From positions 1 through 64,000 of the forward strand of contig JAHPZA010000003.1 in NCBI GenBank assembly GCA_019058445.1: a DNA stretch of 64,000 bases, in the 5' to 3' direction. A program made the translations under genes and the position numbers. Below are positions 19,138-55,055 of the stretch, piece by piece. Below the pieces are notes generated by a model, which saw only the letters and a list, made by a program, of their open reading frames with translations, ran no database searches and had not been told where the DNA came from. The first letter of the stretch is position 1. The number at the start of each line of letters is the position of its first letter. The DNA is from Promethearchaeota archaeon (GTDB lineage: Archaea; Asgardarchaeota; Lokiarchaeia; Sigyniarchaeales; SOKP01).

Positions 19138-19677
19138 GTGAGTATAGATTGGGCAAAATGTGAAGAGAAACCGCGTAAAAAATATAAAGTTTTAGGAAGA
19201 TTATTGCTGGATTTACGCGCAAAAATAAATCAGTTAGAAAAGGAATACTCTGAACAAAAAAAAGAAATAAAAGATGTTGAAGACAACACATCCAGTACCA
19301 ATAAAAAATTAGAGGATTCGATTAGAAATTTAACCATTTCAGAATCGGACTTGAAAATTAAATTATCCAAGGCCAATATGACTATTTCTGATATTGAGGA
19401 TAATTTAAAAACACTTAAAGAGAGAAATACTGAATTAGAAAGCACCGTACTAAACAGAAATAAGGTTATTGAAAAACTCGAAGATGATTTTGAAAAAAGA
19501 ATTTCTGAAATAGAAACCTTGAAAAAAGAAATTGAAAGACTTAAAGACGAAGTAGAAAAATCTGTTGCTGCCCCTGAACTTATTAAGAAAGTTAAAGAGG
19601 TTATGCTGCATAAAGGTTTTCTTTCCGATAAGGAATTCTATCAACTAATGAATACGATTGAGAGTCAAATGGGATAA
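19138..19677 (+). CDS. Head-rod-tail coiled-coil protein, copy 1 (179 aa)
   Basis: IDW..KP...VLG..LLDLRAKI head, heptad-rich E/K/L rod, MLHKGFLSDKEF tail; GAGGTGA RBS before GTG. Confidence 0.85.
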   Translation: MSIDWAKCEEKPRKKYKVLGRLLLDLRAKINQLEKEYSEQKKEIKDVEDNTSSTNKKLEDSIRNLTISESDLKIKLSKANMTISDIEDNLKTLKERNTELESTVLNRNKVIEKLEDDFEKRISEIETLKKEIERLKDEVEKSVAAPELIKKVKEVMLHKGFLSDKEFYQLMNTIESQMG

Positions 19678-19874: not shown

Positions 19875-22202
19875 ATGACAGAGAAACTACTTAGCGATCT
19901 TGTTCGGGATATCCCTTATCTCTCATTAAAAGTACCTATTTCTTATACAAAAGCACTTAAAGAGTCCCCCGGCAAACCTATGATAATAAGACAAGCAGAG
20001 GGATTAAAATATAGTTTAGAAGCCCTACCTATTCTCATAAGACCCGATGAACTCATTGTGGGCACCTTTGATGAGAAGATCCCAGTAGCTATTCCTAGGC
20101 TGGAAGCGAGCGGATTCAGAATTATGAAAGAACTGGAGCTACTTCCTAAAAGACCTGTAAATCCTATTAAAGTGAGCAGTGAAGATATTAGAGTATTAAG
20201 AGAGGAAATCGCGCCGTTCTATGATAATTTCAAGATTGATACTTATGCGCGGGAAATAGCTCCCAAAAATGTGTTCGAAACAAATTTTAGCGGTTGTGCC
20301 TATATTGCAACAGAAATAGGTGGTATTGCCCATGCTGTTATGGATTATCCGAGACTCATTTCTATGGGACTAAGAAAATATATCGAATTATCAAATGAAC
20401 AAATTGAAAGTTACGAAAAAGTTTTAGGCTCGGAACCTCATGCGGATGAGAAAATCGCATTTTATAAGTCAATAATAATAATTTCAAAAGCTCTTATTAA
20501 TTATGCGAATAAATTTGCTGTTAAGGCTGAGGAGATGGCTAATAAAGAAACCAATCCTAATAGAAAGGCAGAATTAAAAAAAATTGCTGAGACTTGCAGA
20601 AATGTCCCCGAAAATTCACCTAAAAATATGCAGGAAGCCGTTCAATTCTTATGGTTCATCCATATGGCCCTGCATATAGAGAATTTTGAACATGGAATTT
20701 CATTTGGCAGAATCGATCAGTATTTACTTCCTTATTATAAGGACAATGATGATGAGGTATTACATCTCTTTATAAATCTTCTCTTAAAGACAAACGAGAT
20801 AATTGCCTTATATGATTCAATCGCAACTACGTATTTCGGGGGAATGGCAACCACACAAAATATCCTTATTGGCGGTTTTGATAAGGAGGGAAACGATGCT
20901 AGCAATCCTCTCACATTTTTAATGCTAAAAGCAATAGATCACGCCTCAGTACCAAGCCCAAATTTAGTTGTAAGGATTCACAGCGATACACCTTCTGAAC
21001 TATATCAAGCAATTGCCAGGATTTTAGCTAAGGGCAAAAATGTTATAGGTCTTTACAATGATGACTTAGTAGTTAATGCCTTAATGAATTATGGAATCCC
21101 CTTAGAAGAGGCCCGCGATTATGGCATAGTAGGATGCGTAGGATTATCCACATCTGGCACTTCTTTTGATAATACCGGAGCAGTTTTTCTTAATACAGTA
21201 AAGGCATTAGAATTAGCATTAGGTACAGATAAATCACTAGTTAGTAATTACATTAAAATGGATATTGATCCACTTACATTTTGCTCTATTGATGATGTTA
21301 TAAATGCTTTTAAGATTAAGCTTAACACACTTATGGAAATGGCTGCGATTGCAGCGAATGCATACCAACAGGCTCACAGAAAATTAAAACCGACTCCATT
21401 AATGTCGTTAGGCATAAAAGGATGTTTTGAAAAAGGGATTGATGTGAATAAGGGTCCGGCAAGATATAATTTTTCAGGGATTCATGTAACAGGTTATTCT
21501 GATGCTGTTGATTCTCTTGCTGCGATAGATTTTGCTGTGTTTAAAGAAAAGCAGGTAAGTATGGAAGAATTAATAGATGCTTTAAAAAATAATTTTCGAG
21601 GAAAGAAAGAACTCCATAATTATCTGTTATATAAATGCCCTAAATATGGTAATGATGATCCTCAAGCAGATGTATACGCCACAAAATTAGGCAAACTTCT
21701 TGTTCAATCTGTTGAGGGTTTACGGTCAGCAAGAGGGGGTGACTATAGAGTAGGGATTCATGCAATGACCACCCATGTTGGATTTGGAATCTTTACAGGA
21801 GCACTTCCTTCAGGAAGGAAAAAGGGAAAGCCTTTAAATAGGGATATTGCCCCAGGATTTACTGGTGAAAAAGGCATAACCGCAGCAATTAAAAGCATAT
21901 CCAAACTCGATCACTCATTGCTCGGAAATGGATTAGCATGTACCTTAAATATTAATCCCGAGATTGCAAAAATTGAAGACGGGAAAGTGCTAGAGTCGCT
22001 TATTCGCGCTTATGTTAAACTTGGAGGTTCTCACTTACAATTTAACTCCATATCTTTAAAAATGCTTGAAGATGCTCAGAAATTCCCAGAGAAACACAAG
22101 GATCTCATGGTTCGTGTATCTGGCTACAGTGCCCGATTTGTAGATTTACCTAAAGCTGTACAAGATGATATTATGGATAGATATTGTTACAACTACGTTT
22201 AA
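19875..22202 (+). CDS. Glycyl radical enzyme (PFL2/GD-like superfamily), substrate unknown
   Basis: RVSGYS glycyl loop (G750), single-Cys loop GCVG (C421), SFGRIDQYL, PKYGNDD. Confidence 0.93.
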   Translation: MTEKLLSDLVRDIPYLSLKVPISYTKALKESPGKPMIIRQAEGLKYSLEALPILIRPDELIVGTFDEKIPVAIPRLEASGFRIMKELELLPKRPVNPIKVSSEDIRVLREEIAPFYDNFKIDTYAREIAPKNVFETNFSGCAYIATEIGGIAHAVMDYPRLISMGLRKYIELSNEQIESYEKVLGSEPHADEKIAFYKSIIIISKALINYANKFAVKAEEMANKETNPNRKAELKKIAETCRNVPENSPKNMQEAVQFLWFIHMALHIENFEHGISFGRIDQYLLPYYKDNDDEVLHLFINLLLKTNEIIALYDSIATTYFGGMATTQNILIGGFDKEGNDASNPLTFLMLKAIDHASVPSPNLVVRIHSDTPSELYQAIARILAKGKNVIGLYNDDLVVNALMNYGIPLEEARDYGIVGCVGLSTSGTSFDNTGAVFLNTVKALELALGTDKSLVSNYIKMDIDPLTFCSIDDVINAFKIKLNTLMEMAAIAANAYQQAHRKLKPTPLMSLGIKGCFEKGIDVNKGPARYNFSGIHVTGYSDAVDSLAAIDFAVFKEKQVSMEELIDALKNNFRGKKELHNYLLYKCPKYGNDDPQADVYATKLGKLLVQSVEGLRSARGGDYRVGIHAMTTHVGFGIFTGALPSGRKKGKPLNRDIAPGFTGEKGITAAIKSISKLDHSLLGNGLACTLNINPEIAKIEDGKVLESLIRAYVKLGGSHLQFNSISLKMLEDAQKFPEKHKDLMVRVSGYSARFVDLPKAVQDDIMDRYCYNYV

Positions 22203-42789: not shown

Positions 42790-44322
42790 CTAAACACCTT
42801 TATCAGGAATACAAGTTTTAATAAATAAAGGAGTTGGGGGAGAATTATCAATACTGAAAACTTCAAGTTTAACGAGATAAAATGATATGCTTTCAAGAGA
42901 ATTGTCGTTCAACCAATTGATTATTCTTGTATGTTCATTTTTAGGATTCTCACAAATCCAGATTACTTTTTTCGCATTATAATAAGCCACAGATTTGAGA
43001 ATTTTTATTAGATTTGCTTGATCCGATTCACCATATTGCGTTTCAATTATAACCTTATTCTCATATTTATCTTGTGCTAAAATATCTATAGCTAAACCTT
43101 CAGAAACTGCATCTTTTTCGATTGGTATAAGTGAAATATCTAAAGTTTTATTTATTTGCTCCATGTTTTTTTCAAGCCAAGGATTAAAATCTTTCTTAAT
43201 ATCGGGCCAGATTTTATTAACCGGAATTACAGTATAATCCCCTAAATCCGGTTCCTTTAAAATGATCTTATCCTCTTTTTTGGTTTCGGTTGCGATGGTT
43301 TTATACTCCTCAATTTTCGAGATTTCGTCTGCTTCTAAAAACCTCTTTAGTAATTGAAGGGCGATCATCCTAAAAGCGTCGTTTATATTCTCACCGGTTA
43401 AAGCGGATGTTTCTATATAAGAGATTCCTAAATCTTCTGCTAATTTTTCTCCTTCTTCAGTTGATACAGCTCTTGTATCTCGCAAATCTGTTTTATTGGC
43501 ACATAATATTAAGATAATATTAGGTTTAGTCCCTTTCTTAATTTCATCATACCATTTTTTAATATTGTTAAAGGTATCTCTTCTTGTTATATCATAAACT
43601 AACAACCCGGCTTCGGCATTTACTAAATAGGAACTACGAATTCGTTCAAATTGAGGTTGGCCAGCTAAATCCCATATAGTAAATCGAACATTCGATTTCA
43701 GGCCCTCAAATTTACACTCTTTTTTTGTTATTGAAGTCCCTATAGTTGCCTTATAATCTGTCCGAAAGATTCCCTCTACAAATCTTTGAACCATACTTGT
43801 TTTACCTACAGCGCCATCTCCTCCAAGAATTAATTTATATACATAGTTAGACCCGGCAGCCCTGATTTTCTGCAGTGTGCTTTCTTTGCGTTGAATAGTT
43901 TGGCTTTTTTTGTCTGTATAAATTTTTGGGATGACAGGGGAAACTGGACGACCATCAAAAATCCGAGCAACTTTTTCTGCGGCTATGTATGCATATGGAA
44001 ATACTGGTTCTGACATTGCTAGCCCATCTAAAATGGTAACAAGAATATGATTTGGACCTGCTTCGCAAAAAATAAATCGATATCTCGCTGTATCAAAAGT
44101 TCCTAATCCAAAAGAGGTAATAGTAGAATCCTCTACTATTCGTTTTAAAATTAATCCCATTAATCCTCTAACAAAATCTTCAATGGCTTTTACTGCTGGA
44201 TTTAATAAGAAATTAATTATGGAACCATCTCTATTTAATACAAAGACGGCAACTAGATCCTTACCAACTTCTTGTCTATACCATTTTAATAAAGCTTCAA
44301 GTCGTTCCTTATCATATGACAT
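42790..44322 (-). CDS. Roadblock-like + Rab-like small GTPase + PD-(D/E)xK-like domain fusion
   Basis: N-terminal AVFVLNRDG roadblock-like domain; G1 GDGAVGKT, G2 YKATIG, G3 WDLAGQ, G4 NKTD, G5 ETSA; C-terminal DFNPWL...IDILA...IIETQ...WLN. Confidence 0.85.
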   Translation of the reverse strand: MSYDKERLEALLKWYRQEVGKDLVAVFVLNRDGSIINFLLNPAVKAIEDFVRGLMGLILKRIVEDSTITSFGLGTFDTARYRFIFCEAGPNHILVTILDGLAMSEPVFPYAYIAAEKVARIFDGRPVSPVIPKIYTDKKSQTIQRKESTLQKIRAAGSNYVYKLILGGDGAVGKTSMVQRFVEGIFRTDYKATIGTSITKKECKFEGLKSNVRFTIWDLAGQPQFERIRSSYLVNAEAGLLVYDITRRDTFNNIKKWYDEIKKGTKPNIILILCANKTDLRDTRAVSTEEGEKLAEDLGISYIETSALTGENINDAFRMIALQLLKRFLEADEISKIEEYKTIATETKKEDKIILKEPDLGDYTVIPVNKIWPDIKKDFNPWLEKNMEQINKTLDISLIPIEKDAVSEGLAIDILAQDKYENKVIIETQYGESDQANLIKILKSVAYYNAKKVIWICENPKNEHTRIINWLNDNSLESISFYLVKLEVFSIDNSPPTPLFIKTCIPDKGV

Positions 44323-45310: not shown

Positions 45311-45446
45311 ATCAAGTAAAAATTTATACTAATATATACCTCAAAATCTAATATAAATTGGGTATTAAAAATCATTTAGAATTTTTGAATAAACTTTATT
45401 AGAATACAAGGACAATAAACAATTATTAGTCAATAGGTGGTAAACA

Positions 45447-46229
45447 ATAATCGATTGGTCTAAAGCCCAGTCAAACCCTAAATCAAAGCAAAAGGTATTA
45501 GGAAGAGATCTGTTGGATTTACGGGCTAAAATAAATGATTTAGAAAAGAATCTCGCTCAAAAAAGAAAAGAGATAAAGGACTTAAATGATAGAATAAGAT
45601 CTGCTGCAACTGACGTAGAACTTGGCTTAAGTAAGGTAGAAGAGAGGAAAAGAAAATTTGAAATTCGAGATAAAGCATTAAATGAGAAAATTACTTTTTT
45701 AGAAAAGACAATATTAAACAGGAATAAAGAAATAGAGATTCTTAAAGTGGATATAGAACAGAGAAATCGTCAAATTAGTAATCTTAAAAAATTAGAAGAT
45801 CAAATCGTAGAAAAAGACAAGGATATCAATCATTTAAAACAAATCATTGAACAAATGAATAGACAAAAAGATATTGATAAAAAAGATTTTACTCAACAAC
45901 TTTTAAACAAGGATTTAGAAGTTGAAAAGAGTAATGAAATCTTAAAACAAATCAAAAAACAACTGGAAACTAACGAAAACTTAATCCATCGAAAAGATGT
46001 AGAAATCGAGAAGCTTGAAATTGAATTTGAGAATAAAGCTAAACAAATAAACGAGATTACTCAAAAATTTAGGGATCTCGAATCGAAAATATCTGATGAG
46101 ATTCAATTATCTTCCAAACTCATCAAAAAAATTGAGAAGTTAATGCATCTTAAAGGATTTGTGAGCGACAAAGAACTTGAGGATCTAAAAGAAAAAATAG
46201 AAAAAAACCAATTCTCTATCAATTATTAA
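45447..46229 (+). CDS. Head-rod-tail coiled-coil protein, copy 2 (260 aa; ATA start inferred)
   Basis: In-frame upstream extension IIDWSKAQSNPKSKQKVLGRDL restores the conserved head. In-frame TAA at 45441; AGGTGG RBS at 45435-45440. Tail LMHLKGFVSDKEL. Confidence 0.85.
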   Translation: MIDWSKAQSNPKSKQKVLGRDLLDLRAKINDLEKNLAQKRKEIKDLNDRIRSAATDVELGLSKVEERKRKFEIRDKALNEKITFLEKTILNRNKEIEILKVDIEQRNRQISNLKKLEDQIVEKDKDINHLKQIIEQMNRQKDIDKKDFTQQLLNKDLEVEKSNEILKQIKKQLETNENLIHRKDVEIEKLEIEFENKAKQINEITQKFRDLESKISDEIQLSSKLIKKIEKLMHLKGFVSDKELEDLKEKIEKNQFSINY

Positions 46230-46473
46230 TCTATTGGGCACTGCTAAACTAAAATTATTGTATGCTTTTTCAGAGGAGAAAGAGGCGCAAGACTTCATTT
46301 TTTTGTGTGTAAAAATGTTAAGAAAGCGTAGTTAGAAGTAAAATTTTTATACGAACGTAAAAATTTCTAGTATATTAGAACAGATATATTTATAAAATTA
46401 ATGTGATAACCTAATAACAAGGGTTTATATTTATATTAATTTTTAGAGGAATACCTTAAGGAGATTATAGAGT

Positions 46474-47349
46474 ATGAGAATAGATTGGGAATTAGCAACT
46501 GTAAAGCCTAATAGAAGGCAAAAAATTGAAGGGAAATATCTTTTAGATCTAAGAACTAAAATACATGATTTAGAACATGAATTATCTCAAAGTAATAAAG
46601 AAATAGAACAAGCCAAAGAAAAGTTAACAATTACCGAACAAAGTTTTAACCAACTTACAGAAAAATTCATAGCTTCTGAGAAAAATATGGATGAGATTAT
46701 ATCAGATCTTAAAAAGAAATTGCGAATGGCTGAGACGAAATTTACGGAAAAAAATGACCGAGTTGATGTATCCTTGGACAGAATTACAGAGCTGGAACAA
46801 AAAATCTTAAATAAAGATAATGAATTAATGAGAGTAAAATTTAATTTAGAAAAGACAAATAAAGAAATCGAGAAATTGAGAAATCATTTCAGTCAAAATT
46901 CTACGGGGAAAGAAAGTCAAATTGAAGAACTGAGGTCTGATTTAGAAACAACCCGAAGAGAAGTTAATTTATTAAAACAGGAACTGGAGCAGTCTGTGTC
47001 GACAAAAAGTCTTGATGTAAACCGTTTTAAAACTGAATTAGAACAAAGGAACAACCAAATTGAACAACAAAACAAACAAATTGAAATCAATAAAAAGGAT
47101 TTAGATCACACAATTTTAACTAAGGATAGTATAATAGCTAAACTTGAAAAAGATCTTGAAGATAAAATTAATCAAATTGAAGACTTAAATAACAACATAA
47201 ATGAACTGTATAGTCAAATATCGAATGTTAAAGATACTGGATTAACCATCACAAATGTACCTAATGAAAGCAGTGTTTTGAAGAGAATTAAAGAATTAAT
47301 GGACCTGAAAGGTTTTGTCACTGATAAAGAGCTTGAACAGCTTATGTAA
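46474..47349 (+). CDS. Head-rod-tail coiled-coil protein, copy 3 (291 aa)
   Basis: IDWELATVKPNRRQKIEGKYLLDLRTKIHDLE head; LMDLKGFVTDKEL tail. Confidence 0.88.
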   Translation: MRIDWELATVKPNRRQKIEGKYLLDLRTKIHDLEHELSQSNKEIEQAKEKLTITEQSFNQLTEKFIASEKNMDEIISDLKKKLRMAETKFTEKNDRVDVSLDRITELEQKILNKDNELMRVKFNLEKTNKEIEKLRNHFSQNSTGKESQIEELRSDLETTRREVNLLKQELEQSVSTKSLDVNRFKTELEQRNNQIEQQNKQIEINKKDLDHTILTKDSIIAKLEKDLEDKINQIEDLNNNINELYSQISNVKDTGLTITNVPNESSVLKRIKELMDLKGFVTDKELEQLM

Positions 47350-47554
47350 GTTCCACTTAACCTTTTTTTCTAAATTCAGAAACTTTAAACATTTAAACTA
47401 GTTCTATACACAAATCAAACTTTGTTTTTATGAAATGGAAAGTTTCTTAAAATGTTAGGAAATTTAGAGAAATATTTATAAAATTAGTAATAGATATACT
47501 CATTATCAACAAATATGGATTTTTAAAAGTCTGAGAATTCTTAAGTGATATATT

Positions 47555-48262
47555 TTGAGTATTGATTGGTCGAAATTAGAGTCCAAACCTGAAATGAAAA
47601 TAAAGGTTGATGGGCAAATTTTATTAGATCTTAAAGCCAAAATTCACGATTTAGAACTGGAATTGATCCAACATAAAGAAGATCTAGAAACAACAAAAGA
47701 AATATTAAGCGAAAAAGAAACCTTAATAAAAAGTTTAACCGATAAATTATCATCTACGGAAAATGAGCTGAATGACTCTGAGAAAAAAATTCAGAGTGAT
47801 GCGGAAGAAATAAACTCATTAACAAACCAAAATGCTGAATTGACGGATCAGTTGGTAAAAATTAAAGAAGAATTATCTGATAAAATGAAGGAATTAGAAA
47901 CTCTAAAGAATGAAGTTGTAAGAGATGTTACTCAGAGAGACAATGAAGTAGAAAATCTAAAAAACATTACTATCCAAAAAAATAGAGAGATAGAAAGATT
48001 CAAAATCGATTTGGAGCAAAAAAATAAAGAGATTGAAGATTTAAGAGAGATTATCACACAAAAGGAGAAAGAAATTTCTAATCTTAATGGAGAATTAGAG
48101 ACAAAATTAAAGCTAATCGATGAGTTCAAAAATAAGATTAAATTGTTGGAAGTAACTATTTCAGAGGGGCAATCATCTCAATATATTGTTGATGAAATCA
48201 AAAGTATTATGCAGCAAAAAGGCTTTTTGTCTGACCGAGAATTTGAAAACCTAATTAAATAA
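47555..48262 (+). CDS. Head-rod-tail coiled-coil protein, copy 4 (235 aa)
   Basis: IDWSKLESKPEMKIKVDGQILLDLKAKIHDLE head; IMQQKGFLSDREF tail. Confidence 0.88.
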   Translation: MSIDWSKLESKPEMKIKVDGQILLDLKAKIHDLELELIQHKEDLETTKEILSEKETLIKSLTDKLSSTENELNDSEKKIQSDAEEINSLTNQNAELTDQLVKIKEELSDKMKELETLKNEVVRDVTQRDNEVENLKNITIQKNREIERFKIDLEQKNKEIEDLREIITQKEKEISNLNGELETKLKLIDEFKNKIKLLEVTISEGQSSQYIVDEIKSIMQQKGFLSDREFENLIK

Positions 48263-48420: not shown

Positions 48421-49026
48421 TTAGAGAATTTTATCATAGTGAAAATTATAATGAGTCAAGACTGTTCTAACCAATTCTTTAAAGCTAAGTTCGATATTAT
48501 AATTTGTTTTTGAAGACGTTTTTATAAAGCTACTTTCATTGTGTCTTTTGAGAAATCGGTCAATAACTAAATCATCTATAAGGGTGCCGGCATCTGGAGT
48601 ATTTGTTAAATCACTTTTGGTACCAATAACAAATCTAGGGGTATTTTGATGGTTGTATTGAACAAGCTTATCATACCACCAATCCAACATAAGTAATGTC
48701 TGAATATTTACTAAACTAAAGACTAAGAAAATACCATTTGCACCACTAAGATAATAAAGAAAGAATTTTCTAAATTGTTCTTGACCACCAAAATCCCACA
48801 ATGAGAGTCTAATAAATTTTTCCTCTCCATCAATTAATATAGCCAAATCGTGTGTATAAAAATCAACTCCAATCGTCAATTGGGTGCTAGCTTCAAACGT
48901 ATTATAACATAACCTTCTACAAATGCAGGTTTTACCCACTCCCCCCTGACCTAAGATGCATATTTTTATGATATAATGGGGTTTAATCTCATTAGCATTG
49001 CTAATTATTGGCATAAATGAATACAA
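48421..49026 (-). CDS. Rab/Roc-like small GTPase
   Basis: GQGGVGKT, TIGVDF, WDFGGQ, GTKSD, TSSK. Confidence 0.92.
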   Translation of the reverse strand: MYSFMPIISNANEIKPHYIIKICILGQGGVGKTCICRRLCYNTFEASTQLTIGVDFYTHDLAILIDGEEKFIRLSLWDFGGQEQFRKFFLYYLSGANGIFLVFSLVNIQTLLMLDWWYDKLVQYNHQNTPRFVIGTKSDLTNTPDAGTLIDDLVIDRFLKRHNESSFIKTSSKTNYNIELSFKELVRTVLTHYNFHYDKIL

Positions 49027-49243: not shown

Positions 49244-49963
49244 TTAAATTCCGCATTTTTTCAAAACTTCTGGAAGATTTTGAAGTGTCCCATTATCGCT
49301 AATAATCCCTCCGTAATTTTCAACAATTTCTTTTGTAATTGGTGTATCTTTTATCTTTAGTGTATAATTCCTTGCATTGTTAAGGGACTTTAAATTACAA
49401 ACTTTGGTTCTATTAAGTCCAAGCATCTCCAAATTTTTCGGTCCATTTATCTTAGGCACTTCGATAAGTGGGCAGTCATGAAGGTGGAGTTCTAATAAAT
49501 TTTCTAATGTTTCTAATCCAATCACTTTTGTAAGGTGATTACCTGAAAGAATTAAGGTTTTTAAATTTACAAGATTTTCAAGTCCCTTAATTTCATCAAT
49601 TTCATTATAGCATAGATTTAGATATTCTAAATTTGTAAGATTTTCAAGCCCTTTAATACTAAGGATTTTATTTGAATGCAAGTCTATAGATTTAAGATTT
49701 TTAAGCTTATCAAGGCCTTCAATTTGAACTATATAATTATGGGAAAGATCTAAGTTCTCGAGATTTATAAGGGATTCTAAGCCTTTAATATCAAAAATCT
49801 CATTTTGGGACAGTTCTAAACTTTTCAAATCCTTTAAGTTCTCAAGGCCTTCTATTTCTGTAATTTCTTCAATAGATTTTAGCCATAAATCTAGTACACC
49901 ATTTTCTACCGAAAATTTTCTTCCCCCATATACTACATAATCTTTAATATTATTCAATTCCAT
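49244..49963 (-). CDS. Leucine-rich repeat protein (SDS22-like)
   Basis: 22-aa repeats of the form LxxLxxLxLxxNxIxxIxGL. Confidence 0.92.
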   Translation of the reverse strand: MELNNIKDYVVYGGRKFSVENGVLDLWLKSIEEITEIEGLENLKDLKSLELSQNEIFDIKGLESLINLENLDLSHNYIVQIEGLDKLKNLKSIDLHSNKILSIKGLENLTNLEYLNLCYNEIDEIKGLENLVNLKTLILSGNHLTKVIGLETLENLLELHLHDCPLIEVPKINGPKNLEMLGLNRTKVCNLKSLNNARNYTLKIKDTPITKEIVENYGGIISDNGTLQNLPEVLKKCGI

Positions 49964-50177: not shown

Positions 50178-52334
50178 ATGGTAAAAATAAAATCTATAGC
50201 ATTAGACACAGGTGGAACGATGACAGATAGTTTTATCATCGACGAGATGGGCACTTTTACTGTAGGAAAAGCACAAACTACGCCATACAACGAATCTGAA
50301 GGAATACTCAATTCGATAGCGGATTCTCTACAATATCGAGGGATTACTCTATCCGAATCAGGTGAATCTGTAGAAGCTCTGGTTTATTCGGGTACTGCTA
50401 TGTTAAATCGGCTTTTAGAACGAGAAGGGAACAGCAATATCGGCGTCATTGTAAATGCTGGATTTGAGGATCTCCTGAGATTAGGAAGAGCTCTTCAATG
50501 TTGGATTTGGCTGGATTATGGGGGTCGCTTGCATGCGAGAGAACACGAACATCCTGAACCGCTTATACCAAGGAAGCAAATTAAGGGTGTCAGAGGCAGA
50601 ATTAACTTCTGGGGAGAAGAACTAATACCACTATATAATGAAGATGTAAAAAAAGCGGTACGCGAACTGCTTGATAAGGGAGTAGAAAGTATTTGTGTCT
50701 GTTTGCTCTGTTCATACATGAATGCTAGTCATGAAATGCAAGTTGAAAGAATTGCCAAAGAAGTAATGAAGGAAATGGGCAAAGAAATTCCAATTATTTT
50801 GTCAAGCGAGCATAATCCAGTAAGAGGTGAAACACCACGTTTGAATGCTCTCATTATAGAACAATATGCTGCTGAACCTTCGAGGAAGCAATTAATTGAA
50901 ATTGCGGAACGAATGAAAGAAAAAGGAGTGCCGGCACCTCTTAGAATTTTAACAACATATGGAGGGACTATTTCTCCTTATCACAAAACCCTTATCCCTA
51001 CCATGGTTTCAGGTCCGATCGGTGGAATGATAGGTACCCAATTTATTGCTGAAAAATATGGCATAAAAAACTTAGTATCTTCAGATGTAGGGGGCACTAG
51101 TTTCGACGTTGGGCTCGTAATGGAGCGTTATGTTCCAGCAAAATGGGAAAGTTCTCTTGGAAAATTTATATTAAATATCCCTATGATTGCTTTAGATTCA
51201 ATAGGCGCTGGTACTGGAATGTATGTAAGATATAATGAAATCTCTGATAGATTAGAATTTGGTCCTGAAAGTGCTGGATACAAAATTGGAGTATGTAATG
51301 AGCAATCTGGAGTAGAGACGGTAACCATGACTGATTGCAGTATTATTTTAGGCTACCTTAATCCGGATTATTTTCTTGGAGGGAAGATAAAACTAAATAA
51401 AAATCGAGCTTTTAAATATATCGAAGAACAAATTGCTGATCCTTTGAAGGCAGATCCTTATAGCACTGCTAGAGGTGCTCTTGACCTCATAGAAATTAAT
51501 ATGAAGAACCACCTCAATGGAATGATTCAAGGTCTTGGATTCAGACCAGAAAATTATACTTTAATTTCTTTTGGAGGAGGAGGTCCCCTTCATGTTGCTG
51601 GATACGCCCAAGATTTAAAATTTCAAGACATTTTAATACCGGAATGGGCGCCCGCTTTCTCTGCTTTCGGTTGTGCATGTGCAGATCACTCATATCGGCA
51701 TGAAAAATCTGTTGATTTAGTTATGCCTCCTGATGGCGGAATGGATGGATTTGTAGCATCCATGATGAGCTCCACATGGACTGATTTAAAAATCGAAATT
51801 TCTAAAGAGTTTGAGAAAGAGGGAAGAGATGTTAGTGAGATGGAATTCAGACCTTCCCTGCGAATGCAGTATTTCGGAATGTTTGACGACTTGGAAGTAG
51901 AATCACCCGCAGAACAATTAATTAGTCAATATTCTACGGAAAAAGATCGCTATATTTCTGAAGATTTGACAGAAATCACCAGAAGATATAATAAACTATT
52001 TGAGGAAATATTCCGCAGAGGAACAACTAGCCCGGAACTCGGATATCATATAACCAAAGCAATAGGGACAGGTATTGTACCTGTACCAAAACCTAAATTA
52101 CCAGAACAACAGCTTACTAGTGAAAAGCCTGATGATGAAGCTACCAAGGGAAATAGAGATATTTTCTGGGGAAAAGGCTGGCATGAAGCCTCACTCTGGG
52201 AAATGAGTTTACTAAAGGCAGGGAATATCATTGATGGCCCAGCAGTGATTGAAGCTCCAGCAACTACTTTAGTGGTTCCACCAGGATATCGTGTTAAACT
52301 TGATAAGCATAGAATTTTCCATATGGAGGTGTAA
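50178..52334 (+). CDS. acxA: Acetone carboxylase beta subunit (hydantoinase A family)
   Basis: DTGGTMTD, SGTAMLNRLL, SGPIGG, DVGGTSFD, SIGAG, GPESAG; first gene of a three-gene operon. Confidence 0.85.
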   Translation: MVKIKSIALDTGGTMTDSFIIDEMGTFTVGKAQTTPYNESEGILNSIADSLQYRGITLSESGESVEALVYSGTAMLNRLLEREGNSNIGVIVNAGFEDLLRLGRALQCWIWLDYGGRLHAREHEHPEPLIPRKQIKGVRGRINFWGEELIPLYNEDVKKAVRELLDKGVESICVCLLCSYMNASHEMQVERIAKEVMKEMGKEIPIILSSEHNPVRGETPRLNALIIEQYAAEPSRKQLIEIAERMKEKGVPAPLRILTTYGGTISPYHKTLIPTMVSGPIGGMIGTQFIAEKYGIKNLVSSDVGGTSFDVGLVMERYVPAKWESSLGKFILNIPMIALDSIGAGTGMYVRYNEISDRLEFGPESAGYKIGVCNEQSGVETVTMTDCSIILGYLNPDYFLGGKIKLNKNRAFKYIEEQIADPLKADPYSTARGALDLIEINMKNHLNGMIQGLGFRPENYTLISFGGGGPLHVAGYAQDLKFQDILIPEWAPAFSAFGCACADHSYRHEKSVDLVMPPDGGMDGFVASMMSSTWTDLKIEISKEFEKEGRDVSEMEFRPSLRMQYFGMFDDLEVESPAEQLISQYSTEKDRYISEDLTEITRRYNKLFEEIFRRGTTSPELGYHITKAIGTGIVPVPKPKLPEQQLTSEKPDDEATKGNRDIFWGKGWHEASLWEMSLLKAGNIIDGPAVIEAPATTLVVPPGYRVKLDKHRIFHMEV

Positions 52335-52337
52335 TAA

Positions 52338-54557
52338 ATGACGAAAAAACCAATAGGATGGAATGGTAAGTCTTTAATTGAAATGTTGGAAGAAAGTGAG
52401 AAACTTTTTGAAGAAACAAAGTATTATTATGGATTAGACAGACTTAGCTTAAAGGAACAAGATCCATTTAATTATGAACGTTGTTACGCCAGTTTAAGGG
52501 GTGCGATCGTATCGGCCAGAGAGACCGCATTACATGTTGCAGCCTCGCCAATAGTTAAAGAAATCGGGGAACTCTGTTTTGGATTATACACCCCAGAGGG
52601 AGACTCTATAGTCGTTTCAACCGGAATATTAGTCCATATTCACACCATGAGCGAAGGAGTTAAATTTATGATACGGGAAAACTATGAAGAGGATGTCGGA
52701 ATTAATCCTGGTGATATTTTTTTAAACAATGATCCTGAATGTGGGAATGTCCATACTACAGATGTGCAAACCCTAATCCCCTTATTCTGGGAAGATGAGC
52801 TTATAGGTTGGGCTGGTGGGGTTACCCATCAAATTGATACTGGTGGTATAACCCCGGGTCATGACTTGATTTCGGCCGTTCAACGATTTGACGATGGTGT
52901 CTATTATACTTGTCGCAAAATCGGTTCAAATGATAAGATCTGGAAAGACCACTTAATAAATGCTAGAAGATCCGTAAGAACTCCAATGTATTGGGAGTTA
53001 GACGAAAAATGTAGACTTGCAGGAAATTTGATGATTAGAGACGCGGTTCATGACTTTATTAAACGTGAAGGAATTGATTACTACAAAAAGTTTGTAAGGG
53101 AAGCAATAGAAGAAGGCAGAAGAATTCTCATTGAACGTGTAAAAGAACGCTTGATTCCTGGAAGGTATAGAGCCGCATCTTTTATGGATGTAGCTATGAA
53201 AAATGAGGCGTGGCAACCTATCGCTAAAATTGATAAAATTTCCAACCAACCGTTAGAAATAATTGTTAAAGAGAATGGCGGATTTTCACTTTCTTTTGAG
53301 GGGGCAAGTGGTCCCGGACCGAATTGTATGAATTGTGCGAAAGGTGCAATGGAAGGAGGACAATGGGTTCTTCTGACCCAAATTTTGATTTATGGCGATA
53401 AAGTTAATGATGGAGCATATTTTGCTGTAGAAAAAGAATATCCTCCTGGAACATGGGCCAATCCCGGTGATCCCTATCTTTCATACCAAGCGCCATGGGG
53501 GAACTTGATTCCAGCTTACACGGGAATGATGAAATGCATCTCTTATGGTTTATTTTCCCGGGGATATAGGGAAGAGGTTGTCCCAGGTTACGGATTTACT
53601 GGAGATGCGATTCAAGGTGGAGGGATCTATTCTTCTGGACCCCTTGAAGGTCAAAGGTGGTCTTTATCTACATTTGAGATAAGTGGTCAGGGTCTAGGAG
53701 CAAGTGCCGTAAAAGATGGCCTTGATCACGGATATGCGATGTGGAACCCAGAATCTGACCTTGGAGATGTAGAAACATGGGAATTATTTCAAGGAGGGAT
53801 ACCCTATTTAGCTAGGAAGATGAAACCAAACAATGCAGGGCACGGTAAATATCGCGGAGGCGCCAATTATGCTGGAATTGCAATGATTGCTTATTCCAGA
53901 GGTGTAGAATTTTTTGGAGCTCGAGATGGTTTATGTTTTCATGGAACTGGTGGTATGCACGGAGGTTATCCCAACCCAACAGGATATCGTCTTTATGCTA
54001 AAAATACAAATATGCAAGAACTTATTCAAAATCGAAAAGAATATCCTCTCGGTGACCCCGATCCTAGCAATGGTGAATTTGAGCGATTATTGACAGGAGA
54101 TATAACTAGAAAACCCAATTGCTCAACCTTCCCGATAACTTTAGACGATTATGATGTGGTCCATTATGCACTATCTGGAGGTCCTGGATATGGTGATCCA
54201 TTAGAGAGAAAATTAGAAAGCATTAGAAAAGATCTTAATGATGAAATCTATACGAAAGACTTTGTTTATAATATCTATGGTACAGTCGCCACTTATGATA
54301 AGAATAAAGAAGAATGGACTATAGATGAGAAAGCATCCGAAGAACGTCGAGAATCAATTAAGAGGGAAAGAATGGAAAAATCGATGACTTTTGAAGAGTT
54401 CTGGGAATATGAAAGGAAGAAAATAACTGAAGATAAGCTCTATGAGGCCGTTAAACGCATGTATTCGGAAAGCATTAAATTTTCTACCAAATATTGGGCG
54501 AAAGAGTTCCGGGAATTTTGGAAGCTTCCCGAAGATTTCGAGATGGAGGTGAAGTAA
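52338..54557 (+). CDS. acxB: Acetone carboxylase alpha subunit (hydantoinase B family)
   Basis: GWNGKSL N-terminus, ASPIVKEIGELCF, GNVHTTD, WAGGVTH, WNPESD, GGPGYGDPLER. Confidence 0.85.
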   Translation: MTKKPIGWNGKSLIEMLEESEKLFEETKYYYGLDRLSLKEQDPFNYERCYASLRGAIVSARETALHVAASPIVKEIGELCFGLYTPEGDSIVVSTGILVHIHTMSEGVKFMIRENYEEDVGINPGDIFLNNDPECGNVHTTDVQTLIPLFWEDELIGWAGGVTHQIDTGGITPGHDLISAVQRFDDGVYYTCRKIGSNDKIWKDHLINARRSVRTPMYWELDEKCRLAGNLMIRDAVHDFIKREGIDYYKKFVREAIEEGRRILIERVKERLIPGRYRAASFMDVAMKNEAWQPIAKIDKISNQPLEIIVKENGGFSLSFEGASGPGPNCMNCAKGAMEGGQWVLLTQILIYGDKVNDGAYFAVEKEYPPGTWANPGDPYLSYQAPWGNLIPAYTGMMKCISYGLFSRGYREEVVPGYGFTGDAIQGGGIYSSGPLEGQRWSLSTFEISGQGLGASAVKDGLDHGYAMWNPESDLGDVETWELFQGGIPYLARKMKPNNAGHGKYRGGANYAGIAMIAYSRGVEFFGARDGLCFHGTGGMHGGYPNPTGYRLYAKNTNMQELIQNRKEYPLGDPDPSNGEFERLLTGDITRKPNCSTFPITLDDYDVVHYALSGGPGYGDPLERKLESIRKDLNDEIYTKDFVYNIYGTVATYDKNKEEWTIDEKASEERRESIKRERMEKSMTFEEFWEYERKKITEDKLYEAVKRMYSESIKFSTKYWAKEFREFWKLPEDFEMEVK

Positions 54558-55055
54558 ATGGTTCAACATGATAAAAAAACATTAGAAAGAATGATAGACG
54601 GGGATTTACCTTGGGATGAGTTAAAGCCAATCATTAGTGGAAGAAAGGATCCTAACAGGTTTGATATTATTCTGGAAATTTTGCAGGAACGGGTTTCATG
54701 GAATGAAAAAATACTTCTGCCTCTTCATGAACATTTATATGTGGTATCAAAAGAAGGTCAAAGAATTGTTAAATGCGATTGCGGATATGAGTTTGGAGAT
54801 TATCGAGAAAACTGGAAACATAAATGTCGAGTTAGGGTAAGAGATACTGAAGAATCTATTGGAGAATTGTATCCGAAATATATGGGGAGCGATCCCGACT
54901 GGGAAGAACTTAGAGAATATATTTGTCCGGGATGTCTTTCGTTGTTAGATGTTGAGGCAGTTCCACCGGGATATCCCACCATTTTTAATTTTCTGCCTGA
55001 TATTGATGCATTCTATGAGAAATGGTTAGGAAGGAAAGCACCTGATAAAAAATAA
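54558..55055 (+). CDS. acxC: Acetone carboxylase gamma subunit
   Basis: KILLPLHEHLYVV, CDCG, NWK, CPGC, PGYP, FLPDID. Confidence 0.9.
   Translation: MVQHDKKTLERMIDGDLPWDELKPIISGRKDPNRFDIILEILQERVSWNEKILLPLHEHLYVVSKEGQRIVKCDCGYEFGDYRENWKHKCRVRVRDTEESIGELYPKYMGSDPDWEELREYICPGCLSLLDVEAVPPGYPTIFNFLPDIDAFYEKWLGRKAPDKK

Follow-up and report, generated by a model that had tools for sequence, protein, structure and literature searches.

What might a group of proteins do whose members have nothing but their two ends in common? The question is raised by the first 64,000 nucleotides of contig JAHPZA010000003.1 (GenBank assembly GCA_019058445.1) from Promethearchaeota archaeon, a member of the class Lokiarchaeia; this whole stretch is referred to below as the window. 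It contains four genes, one on its own and three in tandem (positions 45,447 to 48,262), whose products consist of a conserved N-terminal head, a coiled-coil rod and a conserved C-terminal tail. We hold with moderate confidence that these proteins belong to a family of modular spacers or adaptors rather than to a self-polymerising filament. This logic follows from the combination of an invariant head, a rod length that is fixed for each paralogue and a tail that is exchangeable.

Few cultured organisms are more closely related to eukaryotes than Lokiarchaeia. Their complex shape relies on an actin cytoskeleton, the accessory proteins of which are, to our knowledge, mostly unknown. Because the family is class-wide, is nearly absent elsewhere in Asgard archaea and has a polar rod that is able to carry a gelsolin domain or the Zn domain of 2DGel, it stands as a concrete candidate for an adaptor system of the cytoskeleton or envelope that is specific to this lineage. 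Modular coiled-coil adaptors are in themselves a familiar kind of protein.

Conserved ends and a rod of set length

All four open reading frames (ORFs) reported in a first-pass annotation of the window were confirmed, with products of 179, 260, 291 and 235 amino acids (p179, p260, p291 and p235; Table 1). That annotation had described a common head and a short helical tail, which is borne out by both alignment and profiles, and only these two ends are conserved in the paralogue alignment. The head spans roughly 35 residues with the motif (M/I)xIDWxKxExKPxKxxKVxGxxLLDLRxKIxxLE, wherein I3, D4, W5, P12, K17, G20, L23, L24, D25, L26, K29, I30, L33 and E34 are invariant (p179 numbering). The tail carries a short KGF(L/V)(S/T)D motif, and its invariant positions are M156, K159, G160, F161, D164, E166 and L170. 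Separate profiles of the head and the tail each retrieve the identical five genes from the 4.6-Mb genome, with E-values of 1e-10 to 1e-27, and nothing else significant in it. This pattern is therefore not due to chance. Head and tail co-occur in one gene in all five copies, and KGF-tailed genes that were read through at the loci of relatives likewise carry the head.

The rod shows a sharp hydrophobic period of 3.5 residues (power 3.5-5.5 versus a median of 0.11), is free of proline and has 37-43% charged residues. As the annotation had stated, neither a transmembrane (TM) segment (maximum KD19 0.48) nor a Walker A motif is found in the four proteins of the window, each of which has 0-1 cysteines. 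It had also described the rod as varying freely, and this stands only in part. Among paralogues the rods are indeed just 16-27% identical, but one-to-one orthologues in a congeneric genome (G174) are 51-79% identical and keep their lengths (260/261, 291/288, 235/228 and 179/183 amino acids in this genome and in G174, respectively). The same trio is present there in the same gene order. From these comparisons, rod length is judged to be fixed within each paralogue lineage. Across the family, 94-260 residues separate the head glycine from the tail glycine, which corresponds to ~14-39 nm. Rod lengths modulo 7 are uneven; the sequences are non-independent, and no conclusion is drawn from this.

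An AlphaFold 2 (AF2) monomer model of p179 (pLDDT 86) has a helix at residues 5-10, a loop, an uninterrupted helix at residues 20-141 and a tail hairpin formed by residues 145-159 and 164-178. Folding of two copies gave an ipSAE of 0.54 versus 0.00 for the best control. Of proteins solved as one-chain pairs, 20 of 30 attain a value of 0.54, as does 1 of 23 solved single chains; these counts are only rough because our own alignment was supplied to the dimer prediction. The dimer runs agree in at least 98% of their contacts, and the partner pLDDT is at least 87. Contacts are i-to-i over the full length of the rod and follow an a/d pattern, head touches head and tail touches tail, and the head residues that reach the partner chain are 3, 5, 8-9 and 11-21. 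The model supports a parallel, in-register and polar homodimer with the heads at one end and the tails at the other. An antiparallel dimer joining head and tail was also considered; the modelled dimer is parallel.

This coiled-coil family is previously undescribed and unannotated. Searches of whole proteins, heads and tails against Pfam and NCBIfam returned only sub-threshold coiled-coil noise, PDB sequence profiles gave nothing beyond designed coiled coils for the head and the KGF tail, and the head matches no family in any of the three collections. No description of the IDW head or of the head-rod-tail family was found in the literature. A feature search of the ESM Atlas returned only unnamed coiled-coil clusters (score 0.92 with the whole protein as query and <0.9 with just the head) and gave Pfam 38.1 DUF8221 as a possible lead, a word-indexed homologue search returned one fragment, and an exact-sequence look-up returned no names. 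The Walker A/B head, hinge or zinc hook of SMC and Rad50 proteins is lacking, with NCBIfam matches of 27-36 bits against cut-offs of at least 567. The four proteins of the window also lack a GRIP or GRAB domain (Pfam), a hydrophobic C-terminal anchor, a gelsolin-homology domain and a C-terminal (CxxC)2 Zn domain with its conserved Tyr loop.

Range of the head and its various tails

A profile made from the four heads of the window matches 158 of 160 Lokiarchaeia genomes, with 1-7 copies in each, and none of 240 genomes from other classes of the phylum. With a class-wide profile built from 44 heads across Lokiarchaeia, matches are found in all 121 Lokiarchaeia genomes with a completeness of at least 85% and in 3 of 147 genomes from outside the class, the latter at a marginal E-value of ~0.007. 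A head search among 1.84 billion representative proteins matches only 192 clusters, and, with a single exception among the matches listed, the head begins no later than residue 25, mostly at residue 2-8. Each of the seven families of the class has the head. The KGF tail is far more restricted, since its profile matches 121 of 134 genomes in the family of this genome (f1) and none of 26 genomes in the other families (f2-f7). Both motifs are thus conserved outside this genome, and the earlier proposal of a lineage-specific Asgard family is upheld. Judged by these distributions, the head is the invariant and ancient module of the family, older and wider-ranging than the younger KGF tail. Two matches to the KGF tail lie in open frames of 613-615 codons, far above the usual length (G214:C96:7859-7975 and G202:C46:1433-1552); these could be fused or read-through forms.

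The first-pass annotation had seen a loose resemblance between the tail and SHOCT motifs. The Pfam hidden Markov model for SHOCT (PF09851, gathering score 27 bits) finds no match in the tails at E-values up to 10, and a six-frame scan of the genome with this model matches other genes and none of the head-rod-KGF genes. At the profile-profile level the resemblance holds, as hhalign aligns a profile of 27 tails with 15 genuine Asgard SHOCT domains at 86% probability (E 5e-6, 25 columns) versus 0.3% for the head as a control. SHOCT is a C-terminal helix-turn-helix of ~28 residues with a conserved G-x-(I/L)-(S/T)-x-x-E-(F/Y) core; the KGF tail agrees with this pattern, is likewise a short module at the very C-terminus and has a G-hydrophobic-(S/T)-x-(E/K)-E-(F/Y) core in common with that domain. 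Specific to the head-rod-tail family, by contrast, are its KGF core and the I-K-x-x-M helix in front of it. On these alignments the tail is best called SHOCT-like, as it falls short of the curated threshold for membership.

There are at least seven other tail types joined to the same head, and they are unrelated to the KGF tail. The most common is a C4 Zn ribbon (CPxCG...EDKxKVLSYVGHxPxYAKKxxCKKCGYEF), which is found class-wide and terminates the sole copy in genomes of the Lokiarchaeum ossiferum type. Candidatus Lokiarchaeum ossiferum itself has a single family member, a head-rod-Zn protein of 407 amino acids (L124:8075-9295), which makes the family testable in an existing culture. A profile of this tail matches residues 284-332 of Loki 2DGel (PDB 7whg, E 3.7e-7), a region that Akil et al. 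2022 (PMC9433394) described as the 'Zn domain' of that protein. In a second group of tails the Zn ribbon is followed by a gelsolin domain (villin match 8e-14, Loki 2DGel match 1e-8), and a further group has a gelsolin domain with no Zn ribbon. At least four more tails are conserved and have folds that were not recognised, and two of the other tail types have no relative in the PDB. The Zn-ribbon and gelsolin tails would tie the family to actin regulation.

These tails invite comparison with known Asgard actin regulators. The (CxxC)2 domain at the C-terminus of sister members is that of Loki 2DGel (7WHG), whereas the genes of the window have a SHOCT-like tail in its place, and neither the IDW head nor this family is described in PMC9433394. 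A true gelsolin domain, as known from the Asgard gelsolins ProGel, 1DGelX and 2DGel (PMC7444086, PMC9433394), terminates some of the head-bearing members. Among these, 1DGelX also joins a gelsolin domain to a coiled coil (PMC7444086, PMC9433394), but its domain order is the reverse of that described here, which is head, coiled coil, Zn ribbon where present, and gelsolin.

The combination of a coiled coil and a C-terminal C4 Zn ribbon is likely to be the ancestral architecture. We propose that, in the family of this genome, a SHOCT-like hairpin took the place of the Zn domain or was added to it, and that the gene then multiplied into paralogues of distinct, conserved length. No head-rod-Zn gene was found among the assembled contigs of this genome (completeness 92.6%). 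There are, however, seven genes in it that carry the Zn domain behind other N-termini, which include the 2DGel orthologue, two in tandem for coiled-coil proteins that share another head (EFNxKIxKALMKxV), a proline-rich coiled-coil protein and a protein of 357 amino acids of unrecognised type.

Lokiarchaeia genomes each have 1-12 matches to the Zn-domain profile. In other Asgard classes, many genomes have exactly one copy (E 2e-7 to 3e-22), in ORFs of 49-75 codons among the matches listed. A stand-alone small Zn protein thus seems to be widespread in the phylum. The domain was reported as 'Loki only' (PMC9433394), and the profile matches in other Asgard classes go beyond this.

Spacers, filaments and other possible functions

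The arrangement that we favour, as modular spacers or adaptors, can be pictured as follows. The proteins would form polar, parallel, dimeric rods of a set length, in which the two N-terminal heads would come together as a small terminal clasp. The head may dock the rod onto a putative partner that is common to Lokiarchaeia, and the C-terminal end would bear an exchangeable module, be it a Zn domain, a Zn ribbon plus gelsolin domain, or a SHOCT-like hairpin. Paired tail hairpins touch in the dimer model and may drive further self-association. Differing modules would in this way be presented at a fixed distance, with paralogues of different set lengths kept side by side. The site of action is plausibly near the actin cytoskeleton or the cell envelope, and we infer a cytoskeletal link for the KGF-tailed copies.

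A tether or spacer role, which was among the functions named by the first-pass annotation, fits the data. Eukaryotic golgins and other coiled-coil tethers offer an analogy, in that they combine a long parallel dimeric rod with a short conserved N-terminal motif and a C-terminal targeting module, a design that the modelled rods of this family would share. The likeness is one of design only, as the sequences are unrelated, a GRIP, GRAB or TM anchor is absent here, and the rods are far shorter. Several observations weigh against a spacer or adaptor function. The copies in the window have neither a Zn nor a gelsolin domain, such that the link to actin runs through sister members only. Conservation of the neighbourhoods of KGF-tailed genes stops at synteny within families, which offers no hint of function. 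In addition, the dimer is a prediction, and coiled coils readily obtain good scores in predictions of this kind, perhaps by their likeness to solved ones.

The head could also be no more than a structural clasp that fixes the register of the coiled coil and has no external partner. It would then be an intramolecular trigger site from which the parallel dimer nucleates in register, and all function would reside in the tail and the length of the rod. In line with this, the head always abuts the first heptads, and nearly all of its residues contact the other chain in the dimer model. However, a near-invariant W, P and G and a conserved charged loop are retained class-wide, which exceeds the usual constraint on registry, and other Zn-tailed coiled-coil proteins of the same genome manage without an IDW head. 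We consider this explanation unlikely.

Another possibility, and the one invoked by the first-pass annotation, is a filament built by contacts between the head of each dimer and the KGF tail of its neighbour, in the manner of intermediate filaments or tropomyosin and possibly with mixed paralogues. SHOCT-type motifs (PF09851) are proposed oligomerisation modules, the paralogues stand in tandem, every KGF-tailed gene that was read through encodes the head as well, and the dimer model is polar, its heads at one end and its tails at the other. Yet seven families, the entire class, have the head and one has the KGF tail, and because the head occurs without the KGF tail, on at least seven unrelated tails, its conserved function cannot be to bind that tail. 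Intermediate filaments, crescentin and bacterial coiled-coil-rich proteins do resemble this family in their heptad rods and their non-helical or short ends. Their models nevertheless score far below threshold (15-16 bits versus a cut-off of 40 for PF00038, and 11-20 versus 100 for crescentin PF19220), and the modelled rod is one uninterrupted helix with no linker-segmented coils. Head-to-tail polymerisation of this type is quite improbable and is not supported as the general logic of the family.

A nucleic-acid or regulatory role deserves mention because the likely ancestral architecture is reminiscent of coiled-coil Zn-ribbon proteins of the COG1579, HP0958 or CdsZ kind. The family members would then act on RNA or DNA, or be chaperone-like regulators, and the KGF-tailed copies would be derived. 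The matches to CdsZ are weak and sub-threshold (13-18 bits against a cut-off of 275). The Zn domain is that of an actin regulator, some members bear a gelsolin domain, and the copies in the window, with at most one cysteine, have no Zn ribbon. Such a role therefore seems very improbable.

A more speculative version of the adaptor arrangement, and one with only a small chance of being correct, is that the head dimer is a receptor for another module that is expanded in Lokiarchaeia. The most attractive choice is the C-terminal Zn domain, in which case the two would act as plug and socket. If so, head-rod proteins and Zn-tagged proteins, such as 2DGel and the proline-rich and other coiled-coil proteins, would form a lineage-specific scaffold that spaces and organises actin regulators in the cell body or in protrusions. 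Head-rod-Zn members would link to themselves, and the KGF-tailed paralogues would serve as length-graded connectors.

Gene starts, intergenic regions and neighbouring genes

The features discussed are collected in Table 1.

Table 1. Positions of family genes, their modules and associated features. Plain coordinates refer to the window; G000 denotes this genome.
Feature	Position	Strand	Remarks
p179 paralogue	19138-19677	+	179 amino acids, GTG start; head, ~120-residue rod, KGF tail
p260 paralogue, first of tandem trio	45447-46229	+	260 amino acids; non-canonical ATA/ATC start
p291 paralogue, second of tandem trio	46474-47349	+	291 amino acids, ATG start
p235 paralogue, third of tandem trio	47555-48262	+	235 amino acids, TTG start
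Fifth paralogue, separate contig of same genome	G000:C9:404799-405539		Found by head and tail profiles
Head modules	19138-19272, 45447-45578, 46474-46608, 47555-47689	+	Alignment, class-wide distribution
KGF tail modules, SHOCT-like helix-turn-helix	19576-19674, 46104-46226, 47257-47346, 48164-48259	+	Alignments
AT-rich spacer before p260	45311-45446		GC 0.20; TTTATA box at 45323
AT-rich spacer before p291	46230-46473		TTTATA boxes at 46389 and 46424
AT-rich spacer before p235	47350-47554		TTTATA box at 47475
Genes flanking the trio	42790-44322, 48421-49026, 49244-49963		
Membrane-protein pair beside head-rod-Zn gene	L123:9346-11036, L137:9251-10854; pair also at 12 further loci		
Zn-domain genes with other N-termini	G000:C4:173276-174934; C6:1160894-1161823; C10:508979-509974 (2DGel orthologue); C6:892033-893103; C10:517312-517773		
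Small Zn-domain gene, this genome	G000:C6:958873-959067		L080; stand-alone protein of 56 amino acids

The three tandem genes each lie behind their own AT-rich region, as had been noted. These spacers are 136-244 bp long and have a GC content of 0.20-0.26 versus 0.28-0.29 in the genes of the trio and 0.33 in the window. Each holds a TTTATA box, and we infer that they are promoters from which the genes of the trio would be separately transcribed. The KGF-tailed genes look monocistronic.

The start codons of the five copies are GTG, ATA or ATC, ATG, TTG and ATT. For p260 there is no ATG, GTG or TTG upstream of the head, and therefore, as read from the sequence, initiation must occur at ATA 45447 or ATC 45450, 6 nucleotides past a GGTGG (45436-45440). 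This is no isolated case. From the upstream in-frame stop to the head, 26 of 85 distinct family members lack an ATG, GTG or TTG. Most of these have ATT at the usual Met position (ATT is found there in 21 of the 85 members) and a few have ATA, and the candidate starts are mostly located 6-10 nucleotides downstream of an AGGTGA-like Shine-Dalgarno motif. The members concerned are at loci L005, L029-L031, L035, L037, L039, L043-L045 and L088-L095 and at positions 45436-45452 of the window. These observations suggest that non-canonical initiation is frequent in the head family, and perhaps it serves as a form of translational control.

In this genus the neighbours of KGF-tailed genes encode Ras-family GTPases, a leucine-rich repeat (LRR) protein, PGM and GNAT, and in another genus they encode a DNA methylase, DUF72 and GT87. 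The trio is flanked on one side by a multidomain Ras/Roc GTPase of 510 amino acids and on the other by a Ras GTPase of 201 amino acids and the LRR protein. The case for Ras GTPases as partners was judged weak, because there are 78 Ras-family matches in the genome and the adjacency is confined to the trio and to one genus.

The head-rod-Zn gene adjoins a tandem pair of membrane-protein genes in 14 of 22 loci, which represent three families of the order. The two proteins have ~250-290 amino acids each, with N-terminal TM helices and a hexapeptide or left-handed beta-helix region, and the pair is either co-directional with or divergent from the head-rod-Zn gene. This association is a lead to a membrane connection of the head-rod-Zn form.

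Two genes with gelsolin domains are located ~5 kb downstream of the fifth paralogue (G000:C9:410495-411789, L122), with a P-type ATPase gene and a luciferase-like gene in between, the latter being either broken or mis-called. By a rough estimate, the probability of such proximity by chance is ~3%. Adjoining p179 in the window is an ORF of 775 amino acids (19875-22202) with a C-terminal RVSGYSA motif, a putative glycyl-radical enzyme signature. Beyond the tandem trio, positions 50178-55055 hold a cluster of hydantoinase A, hydantoinase B and acetone-carboxylase gamma-like genes.

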